Positions 39,313 to 61,949 of a stretch of DNA of 64,000 nt are shown here, piece after piece. Location: contig CAVYSE010000021.1 of NCBI GenBank assembly GCA_963771075.1, positions 15,591 through 79,590 of the forward strand, read 5' to 3'. Source of the DNA: a candidate division FCPU426 bacterium (lineage in GTDB: Bacteria; Oederibacteriota; Muellerivitia; Muellerivitales; Muellerivitaceae). Within the stretch, counting starts at the first letter, position 1. The number at the start of each line of letters is the position of its first letter. The notes under the pieces are model-generated. The model worked only from the letters and a program-made list of their open reading frames with translations. It made no database searches and was not told where the DNA came from. Made by a program: the position numbers and the translations under genes.

Positions 39313-39351
39313 AACGGGGTTCAGCCATGTCCCGGAAACAATGACCCCATT
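39313..39351. mobile_element. Minimal GGGGTCA...TGACCCC element (two ends fused)
   Basis: AACGGGGTTCA-18 nt-TGACCCCATT. Confidence 0.45.
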
Positions 39352-39356
39352 GTTGT

Positions 39357-39597
39357 GCCGGTTATCCACCCCGCTGGCATCCACGCCAATTTTTTCCCCA
39401 TAGATTTTAGCTGCTTTCGCCAGTACCTCTTCCGGTTTCAATTTAACTGCCTGTTTCTGGTATTTGGGCACATCCAGGTTTTTGTGCTTTTACCCCACCT
39501 CGTGGACAATGGTTACGTATTGGCCCCTTTTACAACATTAGCGCAGGAAGAAGGGGTTGGAATAGTTACTATAAAATGAAGACTTGACCCCATTGTT
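39357..39597 (-). mobile_element. Decayed non-autonomous Y1-transposase derivative with one intact end
   Basis: Aligns with 42108-42457 apart from an internal deletion; ends TATAAAATGAAGACTTGACCCCATTGTT. Confidence 0.85.
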
Positions 39598-39885
39598 GCA
39601 AGGCCGTCATTGGCCGCCTCCAAGAAACCATCCCCTCAAAGCAAAAAGGATATCGAACGTATGCAGAAGATTGGGCCAAGGGAAAGACGTGTGCTCGCTT
39701 ACTTCGGAAAGAATTTACAGCTTCGGACAAAAAATCTTTGTTCCTTGTTCGGTATCAAGGAACGCGCGGCCAGGGATTTGCTCGCCAAATGGTTGGAGCT
39801 TGGATTGATCGAAAAACAGGGGTCAGGCAAACGGGACGCCTAATACATTTTATCGGCGGAATATCGGCGTCTTATCGGCAGTTAA
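39598..39885 (+). pseudogene. 3' fragment of an HTH-containing gene (resembles the C-terminus of Fic-family proteins)
   Basis: ...RERRVLAYF...LCSLFGIKERAARDLLAKW...IEKQGSGKRDA*YILSAEYRRLIGS*; internal stop at 39841; no real 5' end. Confidence 0.6.
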
Positions 39886-39909
39886 GAATTTAAATTTTGT
39901 GGGGAAAGC

Positions 39910-39962
39910 CTTCCCCTTGGCCTCGGCTACCTTCGGTGATCCTCGGCACACCCCTTCTCCTG
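39910..39962 (+). repeat. Direct repeat, copy 1, flanking the Sel1/TPR gene
   Basis: CTTCCCCTTGGCCTCGGCTACCTTCGGTGATCCTCGGCACACCCCTTCTCCTG. Confidence 0.9.
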
Positions 39963-40093
39963 GGGCTTTACCCCAAGCCCCTTTAAAACCCTTTAATTCT
40001 TAAATTCTTCCCCATTAGATTCCCTGCCAGAGACTTCTTGTAAAGCCGTAAAATGGGTCTCGTTTTTTAAATTGTCCATCTAAGGGAAACATA

Positions 40094-41896
40094 ATGAAAA
40101 AGTTTCGTATGAAATCAGGCCACCTGGAAATCCTATTTTTAATTGCATTCGTTTATTTTACTAATTCTAATCAAGCTATTCCCCAAATTATGCAAAGAAC
40201 ACCGTTTTCAAAATTAACTCATGATCAATATCTAAAACTGACGCTTGAAGACATTAAAATTATTGCGAACCAGGGTGATTCGGATGCTCAATTACAATTA
40301 GGCGTCTTATATTGCGCTGGCACAAACATGGCACATCCCGATATTCAGGAAGGTATAACTTGGTATAAGAAATCCATTGAAAACGGAAATGGACGAGCAG
40401 CTCTTTATTTGGCCGAAATTTACCAACATGGAATTGAAGGCCATCCTGACATGAAAGAGGCCATGAAGTGGTTTTGGAAAGCCTCTGATTTGGGGGATGA
40501 CGTTGCGACGACATGGTTAGCAAAGTGGTACAAGGAAGGAACAAATGGAGTAAATCAAGACTATGCAACGGCCTTAAAATTATTCCAAAAGTTGGTGGAT
40601 CATGGGAATAGAGGGGGCACTGTTTCATTGGCGGAAATGTATGTAAAAGGTGATGGCGTTGAAAAAAACTCAACGAAAGCTCGGGAATTGTTGAAAAACT
40701 TTCCTGACGATGGGAATGCCGATGTTTCCCGGATATTAGTTGAATTGGCCGGCTACGAAAGCGTCAACGCTATAGGAAGTTATTTAGCCAAAGATAAACC
40801 CACTATTCCATCTTTTTATTTTTGGAGAAGGGCATATCAAAAAAAAGGACCAAGTTATTACAAATTATTTAAATCCGATGAAAATGGGGTTTCATCTGAA
40901 GAAAAAGCATTTACTATAACCCATGAAGAAGCGACAGAAGAATATCAGACCAAACATCCCGTTCAAGCAGCCTTTGCGTCTTACGCCGATATGGTTAAGT
41001 ACAGCACCCCAACGGCAACACCAACACCCATAATATCCCCTTCCAAAAAGTGGTTAATTACCATGCCTGAAGGTAGTTGGGAAGACGATCATTCCATTCA
41101 ATTGTTAAACAGTGATTCTAATCAACAAACAGAAGTAGATATTCCAGGCGGGGGTTGGTCTTGGTCCCCGGTTTGTTGGAATCCGACAAGGGATCTTTTC
41201 TATTTTTCCGAGAACGAAGGATCTTCTACGGATAGGCACAATGATTATTGGCAGTTTGATCCGGTAATGAAAAAATTCACTTTCATCGGTGGGGGTATTG
41301 GGTCTTTTGAATTCAGCCCCGATGGAAAATGGATTATCTGGAATGATGGAACTTGGATTCAATGGGAAGACCACCAAATTCACGCCTATAGTGTTGAAAC
41401 AAATATGGACTACACATTAACCAACGGCCACTCAGATAATTCTTTTTATAAATGGGCGGATGATAATTCTATTGGAAAATGGGACGAGATAAATAAACAC
41501 ATTAACGCAGGAAGAAAACTTTACTCACAGAAGGATTTTAAAGGTGCGATCTCCGAATATCTTAAGGCCATCGATTTAGACCCAAATAATGGGACGGCCT
41601 ATGGCTACATGGGTTATTCCTACTTACGAAATGGGCAACTGGACGAAGCGGAAAAATCTCTTCAAAATGCCATGAGGCTCAATCCTGGTGATCCAATGAA
41701 TAAGTACAATTCGTCCTTGGTTTATTGGACGAAACAAAACGGCGGCTTAGCCTCTTTTTGGCTTGAACAACTTTATATCATTGATTATTCCTTTAGACGA
41801 AAAGTGGAAAAAGATCCTCAATTTAAGGATGTCATTAAAAGCCCTGAATACCTAAAGATGATCAAAAAGAGATGGGGAAGATCCAAATCTTCGTAA
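40094..41896 (+). CDS. Secreted Sel1-repeat, propeller-like and TPR protein (AT-rich)
   Basis: Sel1 repeats (GDSDAQLQLGVLY, GNGRAALYLAEIY), FSPDGKWI propeller-like motif, C-terminal TPRs. Confidence 0.85.
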   Translation: MKKFRMKSGHLEILFLIAFVYFTNSNQAIPQIMQRTPFSKLTHDQYLKLTLEDIKIIANQGDSDAQLQLGVLYCAGTNMAHPDIQEGITWYKKSIENGNGRAALYLAEIYQHGIEGHPDMKEAMKWFWKASDLGDDVATTWLAKWYKEGTNGVNQDYATALKLFQKLVDHGNRGGTVSLAEMYVKGDGVEKNSTKARELLKNFPDDGNADVSRILVELAGYESVNAIGSYLAKDKPTIPSFYFWRRAYQKKGPSYYKLFKSDENGVSSEEKAFTITHEEATEEYQTKHPVQAAFASYADMVKYSTPTATPTPIISPSKKWLITMPEGSWEDDHSIQLLNSDSNQQTEVDIPGGGWSWSPVCWNPTRDLFYFSENEGSSTDRHNDYWQFDPVMKKFTFIGGGIGSFEFSPDGKWIIWNDGTWIQWEDHQIHAYSVETNMDYTLTNGHSDNSFYKWADDNSIGKWDEINKHINAGRKLYSQKDFKGAISEYLKAIDLDPNNGTAYGYMGYSYLRNGQLDEAEKSLQNAMRLNPGDPMNKYNSSLVYWTKQNGGLASFWLEQLYIIDYSFRRKVEKDPQFKDVIKSPEYLKMIKKRWGRSKSS

Positions 41897-41934
41897 AAAC
41901 TGTCCCCCTAAGTAACCTGTAGAGAATTGATGGG

Positions 41935-42019
41935 CTTCCCCCTTGGCCTGCCCTCCGAAGCCTTGGCGTAGGATGACCTCGGCTACCTTCGGTGATCCTC
42001 GGCACACCCCCTTCTCCTG
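41935..42019 (+). repeat. Direct repeat, copy 2, containing a 27-nt REP-like insertion
   Basis: Same sequence as 39910-39962 with GCCCTCCGAAGCCTTGGCGTAGGATGA inserted at 41950-41976 between duplicated CCT. Confidence 0.9.
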
Positions 42020-42022
42020 CAA

Positions 42023-42457
42023 AACAATAGGGTCAAGTCTTCATTTTATATTATCTATCCGAGCCTTGAACCGTGTCTCTCCCTCCATCCGCTTCTTTAC
42101 CATCGCTATCCGATTCCCCACCGCGCTGGCACCCACGCCCATCTTTTCCCCAATTTCCATTGAACTCATCCCCGATTTCCGTTTCATCAAATAAATGGCC
42201 GCGTCCCGTGCTTCCGACTCCCTTTTTCCAGCCTTCAATATCTCACCCGGCTTTTCCCCATGGATTTTAGCTACTTTCGCCAGTACCTCTTCCGGTTTCA
42301 ATTTAATTGCCTGTTTCTGGTATTTGGGCACATCCAGGTGTTTGTGCTTTTAGCCCACCTCGTGAACAATGGATACGCGATGGCGCATTTTACAACATTA
42401 GCGCAGGAAGAAGCGGTTGGAAAAGCTGCTATAAAGTGAAGACTTGATCTTATTGTT
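42023..42457 (-). mobile_element. MITE-like Y1-transposase derivative retaining only the DnaA-C-like HTH region
   Basis: 28-bp terminal inverted repeats with 3 mismatches (42023-42050, 42430-42457); ORF 42041..42331 is homologous to the last ~97 aa of the full transposase (PKYQK...EARD.AIYL.K..GVx.SA.GNR). Confidence 0.9.
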
Positions 42458-42665
42458 GTTACAGCCTTAGAAGATGCCAATCCCACAGCTATGGCGAGGG
42501 CACCATAGCGGCCGCGCCTCAATTCCCTATCTTGGATCAACCCACTAATCTAAAAACCCTGAAAATCCAGGCCTTTTCCCTCCATCCCTTTTGGCACTCC
42601 CCTTGCGTTACACCCTATCCAACAGCGGCCTATCTGAACTCGAACCGCTTGAGGAGAAGCACCGA

Positions 42666-43046
42666 ATGTCCCAAGAACCGATCCTGGTCATCGATGACAA
42701 CCCAATGAACCAAAAGCTAGAGAGGGTTTTATTGGAGATCGAGCAGTACCAGGTGAAAACCGCGAAAGACGCCCCTGACGCCTTTCGCGTCCTCGAATCC
42801 TTCATGCCCCGCCTGATCCTGATGGACCTTCAGATGCCCGGCATGGACGGTTTGGAATTGACGAACCGGTTGAAAAGCGATCCCCGCTACCGCGGCATCA
42901 TCATCGTGATGGTGAGCTCGGACGCCCAGAAGGGCGACGGGGACCGTGCCCGCGCGGCCGGATGCGACCTATACCTCACTAAACCCATCGACACCCAGGC
43001 CCTCCCGGGCCTGGTGGCGGGTTTTTTGAGAAAAAACCAGGCTTGA
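42666..43046 (+). CDS. Single-domain response regulator (DivK-like)
   Basis: ILVIDDN, ILMDLQMPGMDG and TKPID motifs; start ATG 42666. Confidence 0.92.
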   Translation: MSQEPILVIDDNPMNQKLERVLLEIEQYQVKTAKDAPDAFRVLESFMPRLILMDLQMPGMDGLELTNRLKSDPRYRGIIIVMVSSDAQKGDGDRARAAGCDLYLTKPIDTQALPGLVAGFLRKNQA

Positions 43047-43077
43047 CGGGAAAAGCCCAACCCATGAGGAGGATGCC

Positions 43078-43779
43078 ATGTTGACCGCTTACAAACCGAA
43101 TCTATCGTCCCTGAGATCCAGGATGAACCGGGGGTTCCTTGCCGGCCTGGACCTGTTCAAGGCCATCCCCGAAGAAGCCCTCGCCGGGTTGGAAAGGCAT
43201 TTGGTTGAAAGGCGCTACGCGAGGAACGCATCCATCCTCCTCGAAGGGGACCCGGCTGAATCGGTGTGGTTCGTCAAGGAAGGCCGGGTGAAGGCCATGG
43301 CGAACGCGCCCAACGGCCGCTGTCAAACCCTTTGCCTGGCGGGTCCCCGGAGCCTTTTTGGAACCTGCTGCTGCCTGGCGGGCGGAAAGATCCCCTGTCA
43401 TAGCGTCGCCGAAACGGAAGTGGTCGTGGTTTCCCTGCCGCTCCAGGAATTCCGGGACCTGATGGCCCGATATCCCGCCCTGGCGGCCAACCTGTTAGGG
43501 CTCATCAGCGACCGCCTGCGCCAATCCAAGGACATGCAGACCTTCGACCAGGAAAGCGTGGAAAAACGCATCCTCCACGTCCTGGTAAACCTGGTCGCTG
43601 AATACGGGAACACCATCCCCTTGACCCGCCGGGAGATCGCCGAGATCACGGGCACGACCGTGGAAACCAGTATTCGTACCTTCCTCCGCTTGGAAGCCGA
43701 GGGGGTCGTCGGCACAGGCCGCGGCAAGATCATGGTCCATAGCGTTCAAAGCCTGATGGACCGGATGGAAGAAATTTAA
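43078..43779 (+). CDS. Crp/Fnr family transcriptional regulator, Cys-rich
   Basis: cNMP-type domain plus LTRREIAEITGTTVETSIR HTH. Confidence 0.92.
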   Translation: MLTAYKPNLSSLRSRMNRGFLAGLDLFKAIPEEALAGLERHLVERRYARNASILLEGDPAESVWFVKEGRVKAMANAPNGRCQTLCLAGPRSLFGTCCCLAGGKIPCHSVAETEVVVVSLPLQEFRDLMARYPALAANLLGLISDRLRQSKDMQTFDQESVEKRILHVLVNLVAEYGNTIPLTRREIAEITGTTVETSIRTFLRLEAEGVVGTGRGKIMVHSVQSLMDRMEEI

Positions 43780-43789
43780 GGAAAGGGGA

Positions 43790-43975
43790 ATGAAAATGGA
43801 ATATTCAAGTGAAAAACCCACCCAGGCGCCAAGAAAGAACAAAGCCGATCGGAAGGCAGGAACCAGGTACCCCCATTTCCCCGACAAGGCCATGGAAATC
43901 CTGAGGGATTCCCCCAATCCGCTATTCCGGTCGGCGGACTTGGCCTGGGTGATCGTCAAGGGAAAGGGACGCTGA
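43790..43975 (+). CDS. Small hypothetical protein
   Basis: 61-aa ORF packed between co-oriented genes, with AGGGG upstream. Confidence 0.45.
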   Translation: MKMEYSSEKPTQAPRKNKADRKAGTRYPHFPDKAMEILRDSPNPLFRSADLAWVIVKGKGR

Positions 43976-43976
43976 G

Positions 43977-44333
43977 ATGAACCCGAAGGAGGGGAACATG
44001 ACGAGGGATCAGCAAAAAATCGTATGGAAGAGGATGAACGCCTTGATCCAGGAATTCGAGGTGGACCGGCTCAGCTTCAGGGGATTGGTGGAAAGGCTCA
44101 TGCTGGTCATGGACCCCTCGATCTTCCAGGAGGGGAACGTCGTTCAAACCTGGTACGGGCATTGGATCCGCCTGTGGAACCTGTCGACGGCCTGGCAGCC
44201 CGGGATGAGCGACCACCTGGAACTGATCGGCCTTTTCGTATCGGACTTGCGGGCCTTCATTTCCGGGGAGATCACCAAGCTGGAACTGGAGGGTGAATCC
44301 CGGAACTTCCAATACAGGGAAATGGCCGGTTAG
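43977..44333 (+). CDS. Hypothetical protein
   Basis: GC3-rich ORF; strong SD AAGGAGG precedes the internal ATG (MTRDQQ), the likelier start. Confidence 0.6.
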   Translation: MNPKEGNMTRDQQKIVWKRMNALIQEFEVDRLSFRGLVERLMLVMDPSIFQEGNVVQTWYGHWIRLWNLSTAWQPGMSDHLELIGLFVSDLRAFISGEITKLELEGESRNFQYREMAG

Positions 44334-44340
44334 GCCATAG

Positions 44341-45723
44341 TTAGAGGGCGTACTTTTTAACTTTTAAGTGAAGGGTTTTGTAATCGGTCTTCAGCAGTTT
44401 GGACGCCTTGCTCTTGTTGCCCCCAACGGAACGCAGGGCGTGGGCGATGGCTTGGCGTTCGGCGGCGTCCACCGCCTTTTCGGCGACCTGCTTGAGCGAC
44501 AAGCCCGGCGTCAGGGGCACCTCCACCGGTCCGGGGCTTTCCTGTCCATCCTTTTTACCGATAAAAGCCCTAACCGATTTCTCGTCCAAAACCGGCCCCG
44601 TGGACAACAACACCGCCTGGCGGACCACGTTCCTCAGTTCCCGGATATTCCCCGGCCAGGCGTGGGCCGAGAGCAGTTCCAGGGCCCCCGGCGAAAGGCC
44701 AGCCGCGCCCTTGCGCAGTTCCAGCGCGGCCTCCTGGGTGAACCGCCCGGCCAAGAGGGGGATATCCGACCGGCGTTCCCTTAAAGGGGGGAGGTTCAGG
44801 GTGAACTCGGCCAGGCGGTAGTAAAGGTCCTGCCGGAAACGGCCGGTGCGCGCCTCTTCCTCCAGGGGAGCGTTCGTGGCGGCGATGAAACGCACGTCAA
44901 TGGCAAAACCCCTGTCGGCCCCCACGGGTTTCACCTGGCGTTCCTGCAAAACCCGCAACAGTTTGGCCTGCAGGCCCAGGGGCAGGTTCCCCACCTCGTC
45001 CAGCAACAGCGTGCCTCCCCGGGCCTGGAAGAGCAGTCCTTCTTTTTTACGCTCCGCCCCCGTGAAGGCCCCCTTCTCGTGGCCGAACAGCTCGGATTCC
45101 AAAAGGTTCTCCGCCAAGGCCCCGCAGTCCAGCGCCACGAAAGGCCCATCACGCCGGGAGCTTTCCGCATGCAGCGCCCGGGCCGCCAGTTCCTTGCCCG
45201 TCCCCGTTTCTCCCTGGATCAGGACCGTCAAAAGGGAATCCGCCACCTTTTCAATCTGCCCGATGACCCTTTGGACCTCCTCGCTATTGCCCAGGATGCG
45301 GCTCAAGGCCCCGTCCCGGGTGGCCCCCCGCCTCAGCCTTTCCATGCGGGCCAGGAGTTCTCCCTTTTCCAGCGCCCTCTGTAGGGTCACCCGCAACTGG
45401 TCCGCGTCAAAGGGTTTGGTCAGGTAATGGAAGGCTCCCAGCCGCACGGCCCGCAGGGCCGTTTCCGCGTCGTTATGGCTGGTCAGCATCACCACCGGCA
45501 GGTGGGGCGAGAAGGCCTTGAGCTTTTCCAGTACCTGCAAACCGTCCAGGTCCGGCAAGTTCAAGTCCAGCAAAACGGCGTCGGGAATGGATTGGGCGGC
45601 CTTCACCAGGGCCTCCCGGCCCGTCTCGGCCTCGGTCAGGGCGTAGCCCTCTTTTCCGCCCAGCACGGCCCGCAGGAGCTTGCGGCCCAAGGTCTCGTCG
45701 TCAACGATCAGGATCTTTTTCAT
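44341..45723 (-). CDS. Sigma-54-dependent response regulator (NtrC/AtoC family)
   Basis: REC domain, GETGTGKE, ESELFGHEKGAFTGA, WPGNIREL and Fis-type HTH. Confidence 0.96.
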   Translation of the reverse strand: MKKILIVDDETLGRKLLRAVLGGKEGYALTEAETGREALVKAAQSIPDAVLLDLNLPDLDGLQVLEKLKAFSPHLPVVMLTSHNDAETALRAVRLGAFHYLTKPFDADQLRVTLQRALEKGELLARMERLRRGATRDGALSRILGNSEEVQRVIGQIEKVADSLLTVLIQGETGTGKELAARALHAESSRRDGPFVALDCGALAENLLESELFGHEKGAFTGAERKKEGLLFQARGGTLLLDEVGNLPLGLQAKLLRVLQERQVKPVGADRGFAIDVRFIAATNAPLEEEARTGRFRQDLYYRLAEFTLNLPPLRERRSDIPLLAGRFTQEAALELRKGAAGLSPGALELLSAHAWPGNIRELRNVVRQAVLLSTGPVLDEKSVRAFIGKKDGQESPGPVEVPLTPGLSLKQVAEKAVDAAERQAIAHALRSVGGNKSKASKLLKTDYKTLHLKVKKYAL

Positions 45724-46126
45724 TATTCTCCAAAAAAGCGGAAGTGTTATTTTTTTCGCCGTTCAAATATCCCGCCAGCAGCGCAGGCAGGGTTTGGGTA
45801 TCGATGGGTTTGGCGATATAACCGTCACAGCCGGCCGCCCGGGCCTTTTCCTCGTCGCCCTTCATGGCATAGGCAGTGAGCGCCAGGATCAGGATTGAGG
45901 AAGTTTTCGGGTCCCCCTTCAGCCGCCGGGTCAGCGTGAGTCCGTCCATCCCGGGAAGCTGGAGGTCCATCAGGATCAGGCGTGGCCGGGAGTTTTCCAG
46001 GTACTTCAAGGCCTCCTCTGCGTCCTGGGCCGTGGCCACCCCGTAACCCTCCCCTTCCAGCATGACCTTGGTCAGCTTGAGGTTTAGGTAGTTGTCGTCC
46101 ACGACCAAAATCAATTCCCCCGGCAT
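45701..46126 (-). CDS. Single-domain response regulator (DivK-like)
   Basis: ILVVDDN, ILMDLQLPGMDG, LTAYAMKGDEE and AKPID motifs; start ATG 46126. Confidence 0.93.
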   Translation of the reverse strand: MPGELILVVDDNYLNLKLTKVMLEGEGYGVATAQDAEEALKYLENSRPRLILMDLQLPGMDGLTLTRRLKGDPKTSSILILALTAYAMKGDEEKARAAGCDGYIAKPIDTQTLPALLAGYLNGEKNNTSAFLENNEKDPDR

Positions 46127-46235
46127 TTGTTCCCCCCGGCTCTTCCCAAACCGTGCTGGCCACGCGGACAAAGGGTCCCAGGGAAACTTCCTAGTGCCCC
46201 CTGTGTCTCTGGTGTGAAAAATTTGTTTGGGTTAT

Positions 46236-47474
46236 TTACGCTCCCGCCTTCGTCTCGAAGGGGAGCACAGCGAAAAAGACGCTTCCCTTCCCCGGCTCGC
46301 TCCGTACCCCCACCTTCCCGCCCTGGGCCTCCACGATGCTTTTCGTCAGGGCCAGCCCCAGCCCGGTTCCGGCGTATTTTTTGGCCGAACCCGCGTCCAG
46401 CTGTTGGAATTCCACGAAGAGTTTGGGCAAGTCCTCTCTCTTGATCCCGATTCCCGAATCCTCCACCTCCAGCCGAAAATGGCCCTCTTCCTCCCGGTGG
46501 ATCCTCAAGGTCACAATCCCTCCCTCGGGGGAAAACTTGAGGGCGTTGGAAAGGAAGTTGTAAAGCACCTGCTTGAGCTTGGAAGGGTCCAGCAGGGCCG
46601 ATGGAAGGCCCGGGGAAATCTCCAGGTCGATCTGGATCCGCTTCTGGGCGGCCAGCCCCCGCAATATGTCTTTCACCTCGGCGGCGACCTTGGAAAGGTC
46701 GATCACTTCGGGCCTGAATTCCATCTTGCCCGCCTCCACCTTGGTCAGGTCCAGGACGTCGTTGATCAGGCGCAGGAGGTGCCGGGCGCTGGTAAGGATG
46801 TCGCCCAGGTATTCCTTCTGGTCCGGCGCCATGTCCCCCACCTTGCCGTTCACCATCAGTTCGGAGAAACCGATGATGGCGTTCAGGGGAGTCCTCAGCT
46901 CGTGGGACATGTTGGCCAAAAACTCGCTCTTGAGGCGGTTGGTCTCCTGGATGCGGCGGTTCTCCTCCTCCAGTTGGCGTTTGCGTTCGGTGGTGTCGCG
47001 GATCGCGGCGGTCACATAGACTCCCTGATCCGTTTCCAGGGGGCTGAGGGAGATCTCGGCGGGAAACTCGGTCCCGTCCTTGCGCAAGGCGTAGAGGTCC
47101 AACCCCGCTCCCATGGGCCGTGCCTTGGGGGTGGAGAAATAACTATCCCTTTTGGCCGGGTGCATGTTCCGGAACCGCGGTGGAACGAGCTTTTCCATCG
47201 GCTCTCCGAGGAGTTCGGCCCTTTTCCAGCCGAAAAGGGCCTCGGTTTGGGCGTTCACGATAAGGATGCGGCCATGCTGGCCCACGATGATCATGGCATC
47301 GGGCGCGGCTTCCAAGATACCCCTGAATAGAGCCGCCTGGTCGGGGGCCCCTAAAAAGCTTTTTGTTTTCTTTTTCTTGTTTGGTTGGGTACGCGTTGCG
47401 CGATGGACTTGGCGTGGCTTGATTTTTTTCAAAAGCCGGCTCCCCCGAACCAGGAAATGATTCAACGGGGCCAA
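46236..47474 (-). CDS. Cytoplasmic PAS sensor histidine kinase
   Basis: PAS domain (APDAMII...RKDGTEFPAEISLSP), SHELRTPLN, NALKFS, DSGIG and GTGLGL; start uncertain. Confidence 0.93.
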   Translation of the reverse strand: MAPLNHFLVRGSRLLKKIKPRQVHRATRTQPNKKKKTKSFLGAPDQAALFRGILEAAPDAMIIVGQHGRILIVNAQTEALFGWKRAELLGEPMEKLVPPRFRNMHPAKRDSYFSTPKARPMGAGLDLYALRKDGTEFPAEISLSPLETDQGVYVTAAIRDTTERKRQLEEENRRIQETNRLKSEFLANMSHELRTPLNAIIGFSELMVNGKVGDMAPDQKEYLGDILTSARHLLRLINDVLDLTKVEAGKMEFRPEVIDLSKVAAEVKDILRGLAAQKRIQIDLEISPGLPSALLDPSKLKQVLYNFLSNALKFSPEGGIVTLRIHREEEGHFRLEVEDSGIGIKREDLPKLFVEFQQLDAGSAKKYAGTGLGLALTKSIVEAQGGKVGVRSEPGKGSVFFAVLPFETKAGA

Positions 47475-47592
47475 TAGTAGTCACAGTTGATACTCGTTCT
47501 CAAGATGGTCGAAGAATAAAAAATGACTGATTTTTGGCCTGAAAAACTGATTGGCAAAAAGGAAGATTCGAGTTTAAGGAGGAAGTGCGGCT

Positions 47593-48913: not shown

Positions 48914-49122
48914 ACGGACCGCCTCCATGGATGTGCTCTATTAATGTTTTCGCTCATAATATTCGCTAAGTTTCAATTCAGCCTTCCGCTGAAGATTTAA
49001 GAAACCTTAGAATTTGTAGTAATTATACCGCTTTCCCCATATTTTGCCGGTGCCCCGCGGGAACAGGTTTAACGGACAATCTTTGGGAATGCCTCTTCCT
49101 CGCCCTTCGCTCAAGGGGGTTT

Positions 49123-52394: not shown

Positions 52395-52471
52395 TTTTAC
52401 CCCAACCCCGTTTTAAGGTTCGCGTTTTCCGCGACGCAACTTTGATTATGTTTGTGGATCTTCTTACATGG

Positions 52472-52520
52472 AACGCGGGGATTCGGAACAATTGAGGATC
52501 GGTTCCGAATCCACGGCGTT
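52472..52520. other. Long intergenic hairpin
   Basis: GGATTCGGAAC (52479-52489) pairs with GTTCCGAATCC (52502-52512) and extends imperfectly; role unknown. Confidence 0.6.
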
Positions 52521-52594
52521 TCCCTTACTTGAGGGTCGACAAGGCCAACCCGCGGAAATAAGCCTGACCTTGTTGGGTTTTCATCATCCCCACC

Positions 52595-53920: not shown

Positions 53921-53979
53921 AACCCGATCCCTCCGTGAAAACCGTTTGTGGGGGGAACCCGCAAGTACCCCTATTGGAA

Positions 53980-54005
53980 TGATCAGGCGGGGAGGGTTTT
54001 ATTCC
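53980..54005 (-). promoter_or_regulatory. Putative ECF promoter for serpin 2
   Basis: GGAATAAA-N13-GATCA, with the same boxes and spacing as 55338-55363. Confidence 0.75.
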
Positions 54006-54013
54006 CTCTTTTA

Positions 54014-54700
54014 TTACTTTTTTTGGATGAGGAAGTTCTGGGTCTTAACCATGGAACCGGTATGGGTCTCAACGCGGTAGGCCCCCGCAGGAGCCTTTTG
54101 GCCGTTTTCCAGCCGCCCATCCCAGCTATAAGCATAATCGCCCGCGGCCAAGGAACCCTGGTAGAGGGTTTTAACCAGGAACCCACTGCCGTTCAAAATC
54201 CAAACCGTCACCGGCCCCGCTTGGGCGACCTGCACGTTGATCTTGAGACGGGAAATGGTTTTAACACCCGATGCCTTGGCGGATGGGGTTTTCTTTATTT
54301 CTTGGGACGGCGCCGATACCGGAATATCGGCGGGGGCTGGAACCCCCTGGGTGGTTGTCATGCCAGGGGTTTCGGTTTGAACCGAGGCGTATTGCCGCCA
54401 CTCGTATAGCCCGGCCGCTAATCCCAGTACAATTAAGCCAAAACCCCACAACCGCCATAAACCCTTGTCCGCCTTGGACCCGGTTTCAGGCCCGGAATCA
54501 GGCCCAGCATTGGGTTCGGGCCCAAGCCTGGAATCAGGCTCATCATTGGGCTCGAGCAGGTCGAATCGGGCATAGGCCTGCGCCGCCCTATCGGCGAAAA
54601 GGTTGGCGTCCTCCAGGGACGATCCCAAAAGACTGTCCAGGGCCTCTTCCTCGGCCAGGCTCAAGTCCCTCAGGAAAAATTGATTGACCAGATCACTCAT
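54014..54700 (-). CDS. Putative anti-sigma factor with C-terminal FlgD-Ig/CTD-like domain
   Basis: Overlaps the ECF sigma stop; short cytoplasmic N-terminus, one TM segment, C-terminal WDGRLENG..APAGAY. Confidence 0.75.
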   Translation of the reverse strand: MSDLVNQFFLRDLSLAEEEALDSLLGSSLEDANLFADRAAQAYARFDLLEPNDEPDSRLGPEPNAGPDSGPETGSKADKGLWRLWGFGLIVLGLAAGLYEWRQYASVQTETPGMTTTQGVPAPADIPVSAPSQEIKKTPSAKASGVKTISRLKINVQVAQAGPVTVWILNGSGFLVKTLYQGSLAAGDYAYSWDGRLENGQKAPAGAYRVETHTGSMVKTQNFLIQKK

Positions 54701-55265
54701 GCAAATCACCCGTAAGGATTCTTTGTACCAGTTCCTTGAGCGTTTGCCGGCACCGGGCCAGGCGCGACATCACCGTGCCCATGGGAACCCGCAAAATCTC
54801 CGATATTTCAACGTAACTATTGCCCTTTTCATCCCTCAAGCCCACCAGGTCCCTGCAGGGCTGGCCCAGGGCCGCCTTTCCCTTTTCCAGCACTTTCAGC
54901 ATAAGGGAACGGTCCCCTTCCTCGTGTTTTCGCCCATCTTTTTCCAGGGCCCCGGGCACGAAAAGCATTTCCAACTCCTCTTCGGCCTGTAAAACCATTC
55001 GCTTGCGGTGGCGCCAGCGCCGGTAGCAGTAATGGACGCATATTTGCCTGAGCCAATGGGCCAGGCTGGACCGGAATTCGAAAGTTCCGAGCTTTTGAAA
55101 GGCCGAAGCGAAGGTTTCCTGGATCATGTCATCCACTTCCGGGTCCCCGTAACCCAGGATATGGACGCAGGTCGCGCGCAACATGCCCTTGTGAAGCTTG
55201 ACCAAAAGTTCCTGGGCCGATGCGTCGCCCGCGAGGATCTTCTGGACCAATTCCCGGTCTTCCAA
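54693..55265 (-). CDS. ECF RNA polymerase sigma factor
   Basis: DDMIQETF...FEFRSSLAHWL (region 2) and SYVEISEILRVPMGTVMSRLAR (region 4). Confidence 0.95.
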   Translation of the reverse strand: MEDRELVQKILAGDASAQELLVKLHKGMLRATCVHILGYGDPEVDDMIQETFASAFQKLGTFEFRSSLAHWLRQICVHYCYRRWRHRKRMVLQAEEELEMLFVPGALEKDGRKHEEGDRSLMLKVLEKGKAALGQPCRDLVGLRDEKGNSYVEISEILRVPMGTVMSRLARCRQTLKELVQRILTGDLHE

Positions 55266-55337
55266 GTCATTTCCTTTAAAACCCGAGCCGGAAAGGGCCT
55301 AGGGGAGGATTTTTCCCCCGTGGTCCCCTTACTTACT

Positions 55338-55363
55338 TGATCCAGATGCGGGCGGTTTATTCC
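55338..55363 (-). promoter_or_regulatory. Putative autoregulated ECF promoter
   Basis: GGAATAAA-N13-GATCA upstream of the sigma gene. Confidence 0.75.
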
Positions 55364-55511
55364 ATGAAATTATAGCAAGCCGTACGGCAGGGGGGCGGTT
55401 CCAACACGGAAGGGTCGACGAAGTTAGGGTTTAAATCGGAGATTTAGATAATTTTACGGGACTCTAGCTTTGGCATAAGTTATTCAAGAAAGGTTTAGTT
55501 GTTGTGGTTTT

Positions 55512-55601
55512 CACCTTCTCCCCTGGAGGGAGAAGGATGGGATGAGGGGGACCCCGTAGTAAAGCACCCCTCACCCTGCCCTCTCCCTCAAGGGGAGAGG
55601 G
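55512..55601. repeat. REP-like doublet of the CCCTCTCCC...GGGAGAGGG type
   Basis: CCTTCTCCC-TGG-GGGAGAAGG-type hairpin followed by the inverted CCCTCACCCTGCCCTCTCCCTCAAGGGGAGAGGG; enclosed by TTGGCAT/ATGCCAA inverted arms at about 55470 and 55616. Confidence 0.8.
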
Positions 55602-55666
55602 TTTGTTTTTAAGTAATGCCAAGTGCATAGTTTTGTATTTTTAATAATCGACGACTGACCCCATTT

Positions 55667-55936
55667 GCACGTGTATGCATCTTGACGATTTGACGACGGG
55701 CCTTTACCAAGTTCCCCAAACAATACACCCCCAAGATATTGAGAAAGAGCAATTTGAATTGGATGACCATCATCAACGACTGCAACAAGAGTTGCATTTG
55801 TGTTTTGAAAACTTACAAAATCGTTTACTGTTGGGGCAGGAGTAAATGTAGCCGTTGGTAATTGGGCAAAACCAAACTTTGCACTAGCAAGGAACCACAA
55901 GATCGAGAATAAGAATGTTTTATTATTTTTTTTCAT
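55667..55936 (-). pseudogene. 5' fragment of a secreted protein, possibly SpoIID/LytB-like, cut at a TGACCCCATTT site
   Basis: Signal peptide then IALSQYLGGVLFGELG...RQDAY; the ORF then runs into the element end at 55656-55666 and the REP. Confidence 0.5.
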
Positions 55937-57279
55937 TTAAATATTGATATTCATCAATATGGAACCCATCTTTACCACCCCAGCAGTAATAAATATTTCC
56001 ATTTTTATCAAAAACAAAGGCAAGTGTGTTTATTCCTGGATCCAATTCTCCCAAGGTCGACAATTTTACCTTCATAGTAAGAAGTAATGACCCGGATTTA
56101 TCGGTTTTAAATATGGTCGTTTCATAAATACCTTTTGTGTTTTCATTCCAATGTATTGCGTTCCGATTCTCTATATCAGTTGTTGCCGTTAGGAAAATAT
56201 TTCCAAATTTATCTTGATATTCAGAATTCCAACCCCAAATTTTTTCATTTGTCCACTCTTTAATTTTCGAGGATAAGTTCAATATCTCCGCCTTTCCTAA
56301 ATTTAAGCCGATATGCTTACCATCACTAAAGTCATATAAATAATCATTTTCAGCGGCAGGGTTGGTTTTTCTTTCTTCTTCATCAAAGACAAAAACGGAT
56401 GGTTTATTCGGTTCTTTTCCAGTTCGTTTGAGGAGAACGCCGTTCAATGCCGTTGAATACGTCATGTCATATTCTCTCGGAATCGAAAATATCCTCGAAA
56501 CGGAGAAATCATTTTTGTTTAAATATTTTACTTCACTCTTGTCCTAAATAAACGTTTTGGACAGCATATTCCCTTTTAGACCGTCGAGGGTTCTTTGATG
56601 GCCCTCTCTTAAAAGCCTTACAGGTAAGGGATTTATATCCTTTTTGGTCCGCGATATTGAGGACTTTTTATTTTGGACAGCATTTTCACTTAAACAGGGG
56701 CTTTCCCTAGGCAACAGTGTAAAACCTGTCCTAAACCCATATTTTACCGGGGGCTCCTAGACTATTTAAAAACGTCTTGGACAGCAGTGATTTTACTTCA
56801 TGTTCATTTTCATTTATGACAACGATTTTATTTCCCTGAATCGTAAAATCTAACGGTGGATTATCAGTTAAGCTTGCAATTTCATTCCCTTTGATATTGA
56901 ATTTTTTGAGGGCGGGTTTTTTACCTAAGCAATCACAAATATATACATTCCCCTCTTCGTCCAGCCTAAATGTTGGAGGAGCATATTGTTTTGTAACAGT
57001 CGCGTTGTAAAACGAACTGTTTTTTTTCAAAGCCCACTCAGGTGTATTGGGCCCAGGGGGATGTATCTTTTCTTGCTCAAGTCTTAAAGTAAGCTTACCT
57101 TTACCCTCGCCCCAAGGAATCAACATGTAATGTTTGAAAACATATTTATCTTGTTCAGGCAATGGTGTTTGAGAATACACGTCCTTTGAAGGCAATAGAG
57201 AGAGAACGAATGAGGCAAAAATAAAAGAGCCAGGTAGGATTTTCCAAACAACCCATCGTCTGATCTTTCTCATGGGCAT
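55923..57279 (-). pseudogene. AT-rich secreted protein gene (NHL/propeller-like) split by a 256-bp MITE
   Basis: ORFs 56731..57354 and 55923..56465 fuse in frame (…ENEHEVK|YLNKNDFS…) once the insert and one TSD are removed; LLIPWGEGKGKL-like and LDEEGNVYICD segments. Confidence 0.85.
56534..56789. mobile_element. 256-bp MITE with a 9-bp target-site duplication
   Basis: TSD ATTTTACTT at 56525-56533 and 56790-56798; ends CACTCTTGTCC and GGACAGCAGTG; TTGGACAGCA occurs three times. Confidence 0.88.
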
Positions 57280-57425
57280 GCTCCAATAATTATGAATTTT
57301 TGATCGAGTATGTGGAGAGAGGGAGGTGAATTGAGTTTCAATAGATTCATGCAAATTTCCCTTTATATAACGTTGCCCTTATTGTGCACTTAACGTTTAT
57401 GACAACACAGAATGAGAAAATGGGG

Positions 57426-58379
57426 TCAGGACAACACTTGACACTTATGGACCATCTTCTCCAATCGCCGGTCTTTTTCCACGCGTATTTTTATCACCGC
57501 CCATCGATTCCCAATCGCCGATGGACTCACCCCCAACACTTTTGCCGTTTCTCTTGAGCTTATTCCCGCCGTTTTCTTTAACAAATAAATCGCCACGTCC
57601 CTGGCTTCATTTTCCTTCTTTCGGCTTTTTACGATTTCTTCCTTCTTCACCCCGTAAACTTCCGCTACCTTCGCCAGCACTTTTTCCACCGGAGGATGCA
57701 TGATTTTCTTTTGGTATTTCGGCATATCCAGGTTTTCTTTGCCTGATATCAGGCCCTTCATCTTTTCCAAAAATTCATCTTTCCCCAAATAAACCTGATG
57801 CCTCAACTCATCCCAAGGGCTGGTTCCCGCTTGGAGCCCATCGTCTACGAACCCTTGATAGGCCTTTTGCGCTGAACCTAACCTTTTATCAAATAATCCT
57901 AATAACCACTTCGTTTCCAACCAGGATGGGGCTTTTTCCATGCCAACCGTAGCCCGATAACTGCTCCATTTCCATTCTTTAGGATGCTTCACCATTTTGG
58001 CCCTTACGGGGTTTAAGACCACATACCGGCACAATTCCTTCAAATAACTTTCTTTATCTACATGGATGGCCTTAAACCGGCCTTGAAACAAATGCCCCAC
58101 TCGTCCCCTTTTTCGATTGAACCTTTGGGTATAAAGCCCATTTAAATGCTTCATGGCCATGGAAAGGTTGGCGGCGGGGGTTTCCAACAATAAGTGATAG
58201 TGATTGTCCATCAAGACCCAGGCATGGCAGTGCAAATGATGTTCTTCCACAACTTCAGCGAGTATTTTTAGGAATAAACAACGATCTGAATCATCAAACA
58301 CGATCTTTCTTCGTTCATTCCCTCGGGAAGTAACGTGGTAAACCGCGCCTTCATAATGGATTCTTTTTGCTCGGGGCAT
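57426..58379 (-). CDS. RAYT-like Y1 transposase with C-terminal DnaA-C-like HTH
   Basis: YHVTSRGN, LMDNHYHLL (HUH), GHLFQGRF, RYVVLNPVRA and WKWSSY motifs; tail VAEVYGV...EARDVAIYL. Confidence 0.93.
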   Translation of the reverse strand: MPRAKRIHYEGAVYHVTSRGNERRKIVFDDSDRCLFLKILAEVVEEHHLHCHAWVLMDNHYHLLLETPAANLSMAMKHLNGLYTQRFNRKRGRVGHLFQGRFKAIHVDKESYLKELCRYVVLNPVRAKMVKHPKEWKWSSYRATVGMEKAPSWLETKWLLGLFDKRLGSAQKAYQGFVDDGLQAGTSPWDELRHQVYLGKDEFLEKMKGLISGKENLDMPKYQKKIMHPPVEKVLAKVAEVYGVKKEEIVKSRKKENEARDVAIYLLKKTAGISSRETAKVLGVSPSAIGNRWAVIKIRVEKDRRLEKMVHKCQVLS

Positions 58380-58414
58380 GGCAAAATCTTATCAAATACC
58401 GAATTGGTTGTTAA
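58380..58414 (-). promoter_or_regulatory. Leaderless-type promoter of the transposase
   Basis: TTAACA-17-TAAGAT (extended TG)-6-ATG; the -35 overlaps the inner edge of the terminal IR; also present in copy B. Confidence 0.65.
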
Positions 58415-58733
58415 GTGTTATGTGTTGGCCTGACCCTTATTACTTTAAGAGCGGGACTCAAATGGTAAGCGAAGGAAAGTTCCTATTAATCCATTGATCG
58501 CCGACGAGGAATGGCGGGATAGTTGACCAAACCCTATAAATAGTTCCCATTCCTGACAAAATCAAATTCTGCTGTGTTTTGAACCTCAAATCTAATATTC
58601 AACCCACACCTCGAAAGCCCTTTCAACCAAACGGGTCAAGTTTTACCGCTTCTTCTCGCTCATCGAGTAAGAATAACGTAAATTAGTTGCGCCCGGTTTC
58701 GGGTGAATCTTCCCGTAGGAGAAAGTCCATAGC

Positions 58734-60020
58734 ATGTCTCTACTTTCGTATGGCCTGATCGCCCTTCTTATATTAGGAGCGGGGCTCGTCCTTTGGCTGG
58801 CCCTGCGTGAACAAAGATCCAAACTCTTGGTCACATCCTGGGGCGACCTTCAGGAGAACCACGTCCTCCTCAGCCTGATCGACGACTTCCGAAAGGCGAA
58901 CCCCCGCTGTGAGGTTCAGGTGGAACGCCTCCCCTTCCCCGAATACGTCCCCACGCTCACAAAGGATATCGCCGCGGGCGCGGGGCCTGACGTGATCTTC
59001 GTGGAAGCCAACAATTTCATGGATTTTTACGCCCGCAAGTCCCTCGCGCCCCTGAATGATTTCATCCACCGGGACCACCTGGATTTGAATTCTTTCTATC
59101 CCCAGATCGTGAACCGATTCAGCGTGAAAAACCAGGTTTACGCCCTGCCCCGGGATACGGCCCCCATCTGCCTGGTTTACTACAACAAGATGGCTTTCGA
59201 GGAAGCGGGCCTCCCCTTCCCGACCGGCCAGTGGGATTGGAAGGCCTTCGCCGAAACGGCCCAGAAACTGGTGAAACGGGACGCGGATGGAAAGATCCTC
59301 CGGTGGGGATTGGTCGAAAACTGGGCCATGACCGACGGCTGGGTCTACAGCGGCGGGGGCTCCTACGTGGACAACCCGAAGGACCCGAGAAGATGGACCT
59401 TTGGGACCGACCCCCTGACCCGCATGGCCATCCAGTTCCGGGCGGACTTGATCCACAAATACAAAGTCATGGCCTCGCCCGCGAGCGACGAGACCATCGG
59501 AGCGGAAAACACCTCCGCCCTCTTCGCCAGCGGCAAGGCGGCCATGTTTATTTCGGGAGTCTGGAAAACACCCTATTTCCGGGAAACCATCCAGGATTTC
59601 CAATGGGACGTGGCCTTGATGCCCCGGTCCCCCCAGGGGATCCGGGGTTGCGCGGCCGGGGGCTCGGGATACGCCATCACCCGGTCGTCGAAGTACAAGG
59701 AACAGGCCTGGAAGTTCATCCAATTCATCACCGGGGAAACCGGCGCGCGCAGGCTGGCCGAGACGGGGCTGGCCCAGCCCGCCCTGATCCGGGTCGCCGG
59801 GTCACCGGCCTTCCTGGACGGCAAGGACCCGGCCAACAAGAAACTGCTCCTGGACGCCGTTCAATACGGGAAGTATTCCCCCCTCTGCGGGAACTGGTGG
59901 GAGGCCTTTTATTTCATCGCCACCGAGCTCAACCCCATCTGGGCCGAGAACCAGAAGGTCGAGGATGTGTTGCAAAAGATCCAGAAACACCTGGATACCA
60001 TCCCCCCCAAGCCGCTGTGA
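58734..60020 (+). CDS. Orphan sugar ABC transporter substrate-binding protein
   Basis: GAGPDVIF, YALPRD, YYNKMAFEEAG.P.P...WDW and FASGKAAM motifs; N-terminal TM anchor; no permease nearby. Confidence 0.9.
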   Translation: MSLLSYGLIALLILGAGLVLWLALREQRSKLLVTSWGDLQENHVLLSLIDDFRKANPRCEVQVERLPFPEYVPTLTKDIAAGAGPDVIFVEANNFMDFYARKSLAPLNDFIHRDHLDLNSFYPQIVNRFSVKNQVYALPRDTAPICLVYYNKMAFEEAGLPFPTGQWDWKAFAETAQKLVKRDADGKILRWGLVENWAMTDGWVYSGGGSYVDNPKDPRRWTFGTDPLTRMAIQFRADLIHKYKVMASPASDETIGAENTSALFASGKAAMFISGVWKTPYFRETIQDFQWDVALMPRSPQGIRGCAAGGSGYAITRSSKYKEQAWKFIQFITGETGARRLAETGLAQPALIRVAGSPAFLDGKDPANKKLLLDAVQYGKYSPLCGNWWEAFYFIATELNPIWAENQKVEDVLQKIQKHLDTIPPKPL

Positions 60021-60271
60021 GGAATACCTAACCGGGGCTCGATTTTTCAAAGCTTTTGACTTCGGTGGCGGCCTTTGAGGATTCCTTTATCGTGGGCACC
60101 GGCATCATCCTGCTGGCCATGCTCCCGGCGATGTTCCTGCCTTCCAAGAACAAACATCACGCGGGGAAATTGGACAGCATCGAGGTTGCGGATTAAAAAG
60201 GCGGGAGTTCGGCGCGGGGAAAAGACACGCGTGATTTGCTATAATAGAGGCACTTTTAAGGGGTGTTGCGG

Positions 60272-60475
60272 ATGAAGAACAGAGCCCAATGGACAGCTAA
60301 ATTATCCCGGTTGACCGACCCGGAGCCAAACCCGGGTTGGGCGGTTTCGGATCCACGCGAGAATGTGGGGATGATGTGGCAGTTGGCCCTCGATAATTGG
60401 GCTTTCATGAAGGGACCTCATGCTGAATCAAGATTACAAAGACATGCTGGCCGCCTTATTAGGGGAAAAAGCTGA
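60272..60475 (+). CDS. Small protein paired with a nucleotidyltransferase
   Basis: Overlaps the downstream gene; extended -10 TGCTATAAT at about 60237-60245. Confidence 0.65.
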   Translation: MKNRAQWTAKLSRLTDPEPNPGWAVSDPRENVGMMWQLALDNWAFMKGPHAESRLQRHAGRLIRGKS

Positions 60476-60875
60476 TTTTTTGATCGTCGGGGCATACGCC
60501 CTGGCGGTTTATGGCCTTCCGCGCGCCACCGGCGATATCGATCTATTCGTGGGAACAAATCCTGAAAATTCAAAAAAAGTTTACCAGGCGTTGGCCCAGT
60601 TTGGCGCTCCCATGACGGAACTAACCCCCCATACCTTCACCCAGGAAGACGTGATTTTTCAGTTGGGCGTGGCGCCCAACCGCATTGACCTTTTAACGTC
60701 CATTTCGGGTGTTTCATTTGCCGACGCGTGGTCCCGCCCCCAATGGACGGAAGTGGAAGGCTTGAAATTGCCTGTTTTATCCATTGAAGACTTGATTCGC
60801 AATAAAACGGCGGCAGGCAGGCCCAAAGATATCGCGGATTTGGCGTGGCTCAAGATCCGAAAAGACCAAAAGTGA
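60420..60875 (+). CDS. Minimal nucleotidyltransferase-like protein (putative TA component)
   Basis: IVGAYALAVYGLPRATGDIDL...RIDLL...NK.AAGRPKDIAD. Confidence 0.85.
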   Translation: MLNQDYKDMLAALLGEKADFLIVGAYALAVYGLPRATGDIDLFVGTNPENSKKVYQALAQFGAPMTELTPHTFTQEDVIFQLGVAPNRIDLLTSISGVSFADAWSRPQWTEVEGLKLPVLSIEDLIRNKTAAGRPKDIADLAWLKIRKDQK

Positions 60876-60917
60876 TCCGCTCCCCTTTAGCTTATAACTC
60901 CTAAATTCCCACAAACA

Positions 60918-61949
60918 AGAAAATGGGGTCAGGACAACACTTGACACTTATGGACCATCTTCTCCAATCGCCGGTCTTTTTCCACGCGTATTTTTATCAC
61001 CGCCCATCGATTCCCAATCGCCGATGGACTCACCCCCAACACTTTTGCCGTTTCTCTTGAGCTTATTCCCGCCGTTTTCTTTAACAAATAAATCGCCACA
61101 TCCCTGGCTTCATTTTCCTTCTTTCGGCTTTTTACGATTTCTTCCTTCTTCACCCCGTAAACTTCCGCTACCTTCGCCAGCACTTTTTCCACCGGAGGAT
61201 GCATGATTTTCTTTTGGTATTTCGGCATATCCAGGTTTTCTTTGCCTGATATCAGGCCCTTCATCTTTTCCAAAAATTCATCTTTCCCCAAATAAACCTG
61301 ATGCCTCAACTCATCCCAAGGGCTGGTTCCCGCTTGGAGCCCATCGTCCACGAACCCTTGATAGGCCTTTTGCGCTGAACCTAACCTTTTATCAAATAAT
61401 CCTAATAACCACTTCGTTTCCAACCAGGATGGGGCTTTTTCCATGCCAACCGTAGCCCGATAACTGCTCCATTTCCATTCTTTAGGATGCTTCACCATTT
61501 TGGCCCTTACGGGGTTTAAGACCACATACCGGCACAATTCCTTCAAATAACTTTCTTTATCTACATGGATGGCCTTAAACCGGCCTTGAAACAAATGCCC
61601 CACTCGTCCCCTTTTTCGATTGAACCTTTGGGTATAAAGCCCATTTAAATGCTTCATGGCCATGGAAAGGTTGGCGGCGGGGGTTTCCAACAATAAGTGA
61701 TAGTGATTGTCCATCAAGACCCAGGCATGGCAGTGCAAATGATGTTCTTCCACAACTTCAGCGAGTATTTTCAGGAATAAACAACGATCTGAATCATCAA
61801 ACACGATCTTTCTTCGTTCATTCCCTCGGGAAGTGACGTGATAAACAGCACCTTCATAATGGATTCTTTTTGCTCGGGGCATGGCGGAATCTTATCAAAT
61901 ACCGAATTGGTTGTTAAGTGTTATGTGTTGGCCTGACCCTTATTACTTT
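60918..61949 (-). mobile_element. Y1/HUH transposase element, copy B
   Basis: Direct repeat of 57415-58446 at an offset of 3503 bp. Confidence 0.92.
60929..61882 (-). CDS. RAYT-like Y1 transposase with DnaA-C-like HTH (protein identical to copy A)
   Basis: Same 317-aa translation in the ORF track. Confidence 0.93.
   Translation of the reverse strand: MPRAKRIHYEGAVYHVTSRGNERRKIVFDDSDRCLFLKILAEVVEEHHLHCHAWVLMDNHYHLLLETPAANLSMAMKHLNGLYTQRFNRKRGRVGHLFQGRFKAIHVDKESYLKELCRYVVLNPVRAKMVKHPKEWKWSSYRATVGMEKAPSWLETKWLLGLFDKRLGSAQKAYQGFVDDGLQAGTSPWDELRHQVYLGKDEFLEKMKGLISGKENLDMPKYQKKIMHPPVEKVLAKVAEVYGVKKEEIVKSRKKENEARDVAIYLLKKTAGISSRETAKVLGVSPSAIGNRWAVIKIRVEKDRRLEKMVHKCQVLS

Follow-up and report, generated by a model that had tools for sequence, protein, structure and literature searches.

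The stretch analyzed here, hereafter the window, comprises 64,000 nt of contig CAVYSE010000021.1 from a candidate division FCPU426 bacterium (Muellerivitaceae) with a genome of 4.39 Mb (G000; below, C-numbers denote its contigs, G001, G003, G018, and so on the genomes of relatives, and L-numbers loci). Between bioD and bioA lies a 22.6-kb insertion with its right border 28 bp from bioD, and the GGGTCA/TGACCC motifs that recur in it are the ends of a small mobile element with terminal inverted repeats (TIRs) of ~25 bp. Judged by its gene and its ends, this element is a TIRtron. The window holds two full copies of it, a mini-element that retains only the helix-turn-helix (HTH) part of the gene, a truncated mini-element, a solo end, and a broken end (Table 1).

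Table 1. Features of the bioD-bioA island in window coordinates (ORF, open reading frame; aa, amino acids; A, B, and C are subtypes of ends)
Feature	Position	Strand	Details
bioA, left host anchor	37096-38517	-	TIGR00508
PIN/Phd toxin-antitoxin pair	38594-39303	-	Pfam; same place beside bioA in G001 and G003
Degenerate inward-facing half-site (putative end), left border of the insertion	39314-39336	+	homology to G001 ends at 39313
Broken end	39333-39355	-	outer part and core, ending in a cut directly after GGGTCA where an opposed outer motif adjoins
Truncated, internally deleted B-type mini-element	39356-39598	-	one intact end, core 39585-39590, score 48.8
Block 1	39599-42021		GC 0.42; Fic-like 3' remnant 39610-39843, Sel1/TPR gene 40094-41896
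B-type mini-element, 437 bp	42022-42458	-	HTH-only ORF 42041-42331; decayed left core; Bac_DnaA_C E 6e-5
Host-like signaling and secreted-protein region	42459-55630		GC 0.58; partly syntenic in G001 and G003
Solo C-type end	55638-55669	-	core 55656-55661, score 40.9; cuts ORF 55571-55936; homologs begin at 55670
Block 2	55670-57405	-	GC 0.37; broken tandem secreted-protein paralogs, cut at both borders
TIRtron copy 1	57415-58446	-	transposase 57426-58379, 317 aa, H60-Y61-H62, Y119, C-terminal HTH; cores 57423, 58436
Block 3	58447-60917	+	GC 0.55; solute-binding protein (SBP) gene 58734-60020, 70-aa ORF, nucleotidyltransferase 60420-60875
TIRtron copy 2	60918-61949	-	transposase 60929-61882; left end is the insertion's right border
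bioD, right host anchor	61977-62648	-	TIGR00347

The two anchors are adjacent in G006, G007, G008, and G012, while in G001, G004, and G018 the gap between them has other fillings that contain no scoring ends; bioD-bioA is therefore a hotspot independent of the TIRtron. By its place beside bioA in G001 and G003, the PIN/Phd pair predates the island. The half-site at the left border is listed as a putative end because it has neither an inner TIR nor copies, and the break in the neighboring broken end is ambiguous by 2 nt (2-nt microhomology). The truncated mini-element that follows is 90% identical to 42252-42458, and C18 carries three mutually identical copies to which the 437-bp mini-element is 98% identical. 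A small repeat in block 1 is cut 11 nt from the next end, and paralogs of block 2 occur on C6 and C23 and in G001 with other borders. The 32-bp end profiles described below found no scoring ends inside the host-like region, and one public contig carries a different sequence to the left of 61955.

Anatomy and copies of the TIRtron

The element is 1.03 kb long and carries the gene for a Y1 HUH nuclease with a DnaA-type HTH between its ~25-bp TIRs, which read GGGTCAG inward around the gene. Copies 1 and 2 differ at nine positions in 1032 bp (99% identical) and encode the same protein sequence. The Y1 core matched PF01797 with 46.9 bits, its NHYH, FQG, YVVLNP, and SS motifs are conserved in 20 sequences, and the transposase exceeds the cut-off of NF047646, a model for REP-associated tyrosine transposases (RAYTs). 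The C-terminal HTH matched PF08299 (Bac_DnaA_C) at E 2e-6 and 28.2 bits, slightly below the cut-off of 31.5, and the sequence matches in the PDB comprised weak DnaA hits and a hit of E 8e-4 to 4ER8; the fold of the transposase is assigned provisionally from these profile and PDB matches. Each end consists of a conserved GGGYCAG core flanked by an A-rich stretch of 7-9 nt on the outside and by 17-20 nt specific to the subtype on the inside. The published TIRtron consensus GGGGWSAS is matched at 8/8 positions by the right end and 7/8 by the left. The four strands of the ends of copy 1 fold no better than shuffles.

Twelve intact transposase genes, five end subtypes, and ~100 ends were found in the genome, each subtype having its own inner TIR. 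Within subtypes A, B, and C, copies are 98.7-99.8% identical and have different flanks, apart from one A copy at 90%; three intact copies are at least 99% identical, beside four other subtypes. The outer sequences differ between 99%-identical copies. Mini-elements often keep the 3' (HTH) part of the gene, and selection for HTH-only proteins is disfavored because several of them are frameshifted. Mini-elements of 243-250 bp with the A-type ends of the window occur at L055, L058, and L061, three of them in one 2.3-kb contig, together with an 80-bp form. The start of C4 (C4:1-2300) overlaps window positions 61670-64000 at 98% with many indels and is regarded as the same locus, so no extra copy was counted; at C18:281-283 kb, an inverted duplication is possibly an artifact of assembly. 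A promoter-like site at 58414-58386 of copy 1, with its -35 box abutting the inner TIR and its -10 box ending 7 nt before the start codon, is not above chance (one such match is expected); its placement would allow autorepression.

The GGGTCA/TGACCC hexamer by itself was barely enriched (63 observed vs 46±7 expected). In the window it occurs at 39342, 39585, 42030, 55656, 57423, 58431, 60926, and 61934; the site at 42030 sits inside AATAGGGTCA, which starts at 42026, and TGATCTTATT was found at 42445. Using 32-bp end profiles built from 53 seed ends and a site threshold score of at least 25, 101 sites were detected genome-wide (53 of them the profile seeds) compared with none in two genome shuffles, and the full-length ends are therefore not chance. 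Eight sites of the window, between 39590 and 61939, score 28-49. Weak sites at 39820, 40051, 41901, and 58629 were rejected as ends on profile scores, inner TIR, and copies.

These results largely bear out the description given in the initial annotation of this DNA, which had predicted a Y1 HUH transposase with GGGTCA/TGACCC ends: the Y1_Tnp plus HTH gene does lie between TIRs, and the motifs it listed are present, with one position (39586) corrected by 1 bp to 39585. Its statement that all transposase-derived pieces share one orientation was confirmed, every one being on the minus strand, as was the absence of a target-site duplication (TSD), with a flanking repeat of at least 5 nt in 1/19 paired elements vs 9% for mismatched flanks. 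The two genes it described as cut at a site are the Fic-like remnant, which is the 3' end of a 364-aa gene, and the ORF at 55571-55936, which loses homology at 55670. The weaker matches it named at 40051, 41901, and 58629 did not hold up as ends, lacking both an inner TIR and near copies elsewhere in the genome.

Beyond this genome, relatives of the transposase occur in 18/30 genomes of the family. Eighty loci from other genomes were collected, of which 24 were unscorable; among the 56 scored, 32 had TIRs with this core, three had other TIRs, and 21 had none. A single plasmid record matched among 72,556 at E ≤ 1e-30.

Ends as breakpoints and the side that travels

Whether the motifs coincide with synteny breakpoints was a check set in advance, and they do: for outer flanks with a homolog elsewhere in the genome, homology stops 1-20 nt outside the core in 23/26 cases, compared with 5/30 in five shifted controls, and the refined breakpoints cluster 7-12 nt outside the core. 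Breakpoints of this kind lie at 42019, 55670, and 57405 in the window. Where shared DNA extends inward, it begins in the 1-20-nt zone as well (46/49 vs 4/22 in shifted controls), and most of it consists of element copies. Read together, these alignments indicate that the ends mark real DNA breakpoints. In three independent cases, an end has been duplicated together with inner DNA that does not belong to the element, namely 1.4 kb at 99% (C1/C7), 611 bp at 98% (C11/C27), and a 981-bp tandem (C24). By these alignments, the DNA that travels with an end is on its inner side, not in the gaps between TGACCC and GGGTCA.

This has consequences for the three blocks of the island, which had been read as cargo captured between a TGACCC site and the next GGGTCA. 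Since the unit runs from GGGTCA to TGACCC, the blocks fall outside the element, on the outer side of both ends, and genes are cut there. None of the three was found duplicated with its borders. The genes of block 2 are present in G001 as a paralog array without ends, in a 16-kb stretch, and the SBP gene of block 3 is present in G003 in the same orientation beside the same histidine kinase (HK)/sigma54 signaling genes, in 34 kb without ends; in G001, a mini-element lies 1.2 kb from the SBP gene. The proposal of an integron-like shuffling array thus stands in part, for the ends at breakpoints and the same-orientation arrays, and fails for the cassette units between TGACCC and GGGTCA: the ends do reshuffle DNA, but with the polarity that was proposed, a reading as cassettes finds no support.

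Nine ends continue inward over differing lengths before breaking off at the outer edge of the following end of the same direction, and in G018 three tandem copies include two such partial ends. Orientation is uniform in 22/25 distinct end clusters, a locus listed twice being counted once, where ~11 would be expected. For a strand bias relative to replication, 19/27 lay on the G-rich strand (p 0.052), a doubtful signal given the weak skew and the clustered copies. Downstream of a long Rhs-like ORF at G018 locus L053 (G018:C64:230000-249999), three tandem TIRtrons separate blocks resembling C-terminal Rhs fragments and partner genes of low GC; the Rhs labels come from reading the ORFs. Genes for ParB-like proteins lie on the inner side of solo ends at C1:182951, C3:4580, C7:204372, C11:540933, and C23:111675. 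Four of these five genes, which form two related pairs, have an inward-reading end no more than 900 bp upstream, compared with 1.4% of random positions, and some are located between inward-facing end pairs 2.8-4 kb apart, which may be transposase-less composite elements.

Tandem end duplications and a proposed one-ended mechanism

At 29/222 ends, the full end is immediately preceded by a second copy of its outer sequence and of part of its core. Such duplications were seen at 4/73 ends in the genome and at 25/149 in other genomes, other phyla included; a few of the latter ends, which were selected with a similarity filter, may be false. In the controls, 8/5256 core-like sites and ~1 site with swapped flanks showed the same pattern. 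The upstream copy breaks after GGGTCA in 12/29 cases and one or two bases later in five more, whereas the outer stretch that is duplicated ranges between 6 and 15 nt, apart from one of 28. The fixed break after GGGTCA would therefore indicate a nick at C|T on the outward strand. Site 39342 of the window, where the core is broken directly after GGGTCA and has no inner TIR, is broken at the same position.

Six palindromes consist of two outer-plus-core halves around a single base (C2:49644, C5:106338, C6:91190, C19:76389, C20:36764, and C26:16709), compared with 0-1 per shuffle; their arrangement would fit either an internal deletion or an empty-site reading. Palindromes at gap -3 are mostly due to self-complementarity of the TIR. 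An IS110-family element of 1323 bp with short subterminal inverted repeats (PF01548, PF02371) is located at C3:100063-101385 (L162), with six further full copies on C11, C18, C19, C21, C26, and C28, all seven being 100% identical. The TCAGG of the TIR core follows 7/7 of these copies and GGGT precedes five, and TIRtron ends appear to be the homing sites of this element. For related elements, homing into attC or REP sites is known.

End anatomy, multi-copy spread, breakpoints 7-20 nt outside the core, inner passengers, and tandem end duplications can all be read from the sequence, and from them we propose an active TIRtron family that behaves like an insertion sequence (IS), with an enzyme working on one end at a time in a single-end strand exchange resolved by replication; we put the probability of this at slightly better than even (~0.55). 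The DnaA-type HTH would bind the inner part of the end, and the HUH/Tyr site would nick the outward-reading strand, as single-stranded DNA, at the C|T of its core, with a second, loose nick 6-15 nt further out. The 3'-OH of the end would be joined to a 5'-phosphotyrosine made at a target of low specificity, frequently within or close to another end, and replication would resolve the junction. Use of both ends would copy the whole element without a TSD, and use of one end would give solo ends, adjacent deletions, cut genes, tandem partial copies, and carriage of inward DNA, the tandem partial copies arising by exchange with the sister strand and the adjacent deletions and cut genes by outward exchange. 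The window would then be an island built by repeated one-ended events at the pre-existing bioD-bioA hotspot.

Several observations weigh against this proposal. Among 28 half-sites joined to unrelated DNA, no peak was found at the proposed nick; ordinary junctions share only a weak G (11/24, p 0.04) and follow no clear C|T rule; and, as to strand polarity, a 5'-linked inward strand fits the sequence equally well. About four of the uniform-orientation clusters may be single broken genes, and only 11/32 TIR-bearing loci elsewhere have extra ends nearby. Joining the flanks of 19 elements at offsets 0-19 revealed no empty site in the genome or the fetched loci, and none of 39 pattern matches in the genome was a circle (outer-outer) junction flanked by TIRs. 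In the public contigs of four runs, the joints listed (15 joints, 24 loose ends) were all in conserved genes and none was at an end, although contigs drop rare forms, so this result is no evidence of absence.

An ordinary two-ended IS would account for several of the same features. In that case, a single strand would fold, the TIRs would pair, and the unit would be excised and pasted, while solo ends, mini-elements, and partial copies would reflect later decay by host recombination or deletion and the blocks would be passive. The near-identical full copies, the constant-length mini-elements, the lack of a TSD, and the remaining 21/32 TIR-bearing loci, which have just two ends, are consistent with this. 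Nevertheless, we consider it rather unlikely, given that passenger DNA is duplicated from a single end, that partial copies abut the following end on its outer side, that the tandem end duplications have a fixed break, and that outer sequences vary between 99%-identical copies; the missing empty sites and circle junctions count against it as well.

The low GC of blocks 1 and 2, which have breakpoints at both borders, the resemblance of the six palindromic sites to empty sites, and the displacement of outer-side DNA that a 5'-linked C|T nick would produce could all be attributed to an integron-like array that captures, excises, and reorders cassettes lying between TGACCC and GGGTCA. Such an array is improbable here, since no block recurs with its borders, block genes occur without ends in relatives, and the borders cut genes; moreover, an outer flank was kept together with its half-site next to a different inner part in only 1/26 cases, and adjacent ends are direct in 24 cases, inward-facing in 22, and outward-facing in 14. 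Less probable still is that slippage or another enzyme, such as the IS110 recombinase or an IS200 TnpA of this genome, made the junctions with the TIRYT (the transposase of the TIRtron) as a bystander. The IS110-family element does insert at the same core position, and three IS200-type TnpA genes are present in the genome, but the duplication signature recurs at ends in other genomes and phyla, is absent from core-like control sites, and the TIR subtype follows the transposase subtype.

Extended from this genome to the class, the one-ended proposal would make TIRYTs active one-ended recombinases instead of domesticated relics: an HTH-guided HUH enzyme would nick the core at C|T and fuse the end to loose targets, and solo ends would be portable mobilization sites that duplicate and shuffle passengers, here genes of the ParB-like, ORF6N, and Fic kinds, and give rise to islands of uniform orientation. 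This wider claim is tentative, and we hold it with somewhat less confidence than the mechanism itself. The TIRtrons of this genome appear to behave like active insertion sequences, and the proposal predicts where the nick falls, how far the end extends, and which side is carried. If true, it would provide a further route for duplicating or rearranging bacterial accessory genes, solo ends would mark mobilizable DNA missed by annotation, and one-ended fusion would be an undescribed mode of transposition in the second-largest class of Y1 nucleases.

Other features of the window stand apart from the TIRtron. A low-GC gene for 288 aa between bioF and bioD (62641-63507) has no Pfam or NCBIfam match, and relatives have nothing or a toxin-antitoxin-like pair at this place. 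Two serpin-like paralogs (a label from sequence reading) at 47593-48928 and 52595-53920 are ~70% identical, the first being split into two ORFs. The stretches at 55508-55632 and 39895-39983 represent two families, unrelated to each other, of short hairpin-like repeats that are dispersed in many copies through the genome and the genus.

Comparison with known systems

The TIRtron shares its Y1 HUH chemistry and the lack of a TSD with the IS200/IS605 elements (IS608, ISDra2). However, these have a TnpA of ~150 aa with a Y---Q motif, subterminal hairpins, and asymmetric ends, whereas the protein here has 317 aa and a YVVLNP motif and the TIRs are symmetric. The initial annotation had found neither IS200/IS605 nor a REP-flanked RAYT to fit well, and size, motif, TIRs, the absence of hairpins, and copy number agree with this. 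The three end-plus-passenger duplications may be comparable to the one-ended carriage of adjacent DNA by IS91/ISCR, which have one fixed and one variable end. Those elements use a different Y2/Y1 Rep-type enzyme and have ori and ter ends without TIRs, whereas only Y1_Tnp and HTH families were matched here. Integron cassettes form same-orientation arrays, and a single-strand exchange resolved by replication is a possible analogy. In contrast to an integron, the eight PF00589 matches of this genome are all on other contigs, the borders cut genes, and no block was seen to move as a unit in comparisons that covered three genomes of the same genus.

From its gene and ends, the element is identified as a TIRtron/TIRYT, equivalent to TnpA_Y1 subclass 2.1.2 and to group 1 RAYT. 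The class is therefore already described and named, GGGGWSAS ends included, and is not new, a point on which the initial annotation had deferred to a literature search. In the accessible text of the papers cited here, Y1 proteins with Bac_DnaA_C form subclass 2.1.2, subclass 2.1 is equated with TIRYT, its motifs are listed in Table 1 of that paper, and its nucleases occur in ~15% of bacterial species (Quentin et al. 2018, PMC6006769); TIRtrons were named in 2013 with the consensus GGGGWSAS and dispersed TIR families (Di Nocera et al., PMC3733652). Of the RAYT groups, group 1 is described as closest to an IS, with 6.2% duplicates (Bertels et al. 2017, PMC5581495), and a later essay treats it as single-copy (10.1101/2021.07.10.451892). 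The element here resembles the published TIRtrons in its Y1 HUH gene between long GGGGWSAS TIRs, its C-terminal Bac_DnaA_C HTH, its NHYH, FQ, YxxLNP, and SS motifs, and its dispersed TIR copies. Those accounts, in the same accessible text, give 1.9 copies on average at 49% identity and describe neither a mechanism nor boundaries, mini-elements, or passengers; in the genome studied here, the intact genes number 12, copies reach 99% identity, the breakpoints could be mapped, and passengers lie on the inner side of ends. A literature search, with subscription papers outside its scope, found two works that mention TIRYT and no report of a TIRYT mechanism, TIR cleavage, or cassettes.

The REPtron/RAYT system (E. 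coli TnpA_REP, PDB 4ER8) has the same catalytic core. It differs in that the TIRtron has ends without a hairpin, an extra HTH, and a gene that is itself copied; the gene is multi-copy, unlike the single-copy, non-transposing genes of RAYT groups 2 and 3. As for GTAG-tagged REP hairpins, the TIRtron ends fold no better than shuffles, GTAG motifs not having been scanned separately. E. coli TnpA_REP cuts C|T, and for its tandem units a nick, 3'-OH extension, a second cut, and rejoining have been proposed (PMC3333891, PMC8266576); as far as these sources describe them, both the C|T cleavage and the nick-extend-rejoin amplification would fit the tandem duplications of TIRtron ends.

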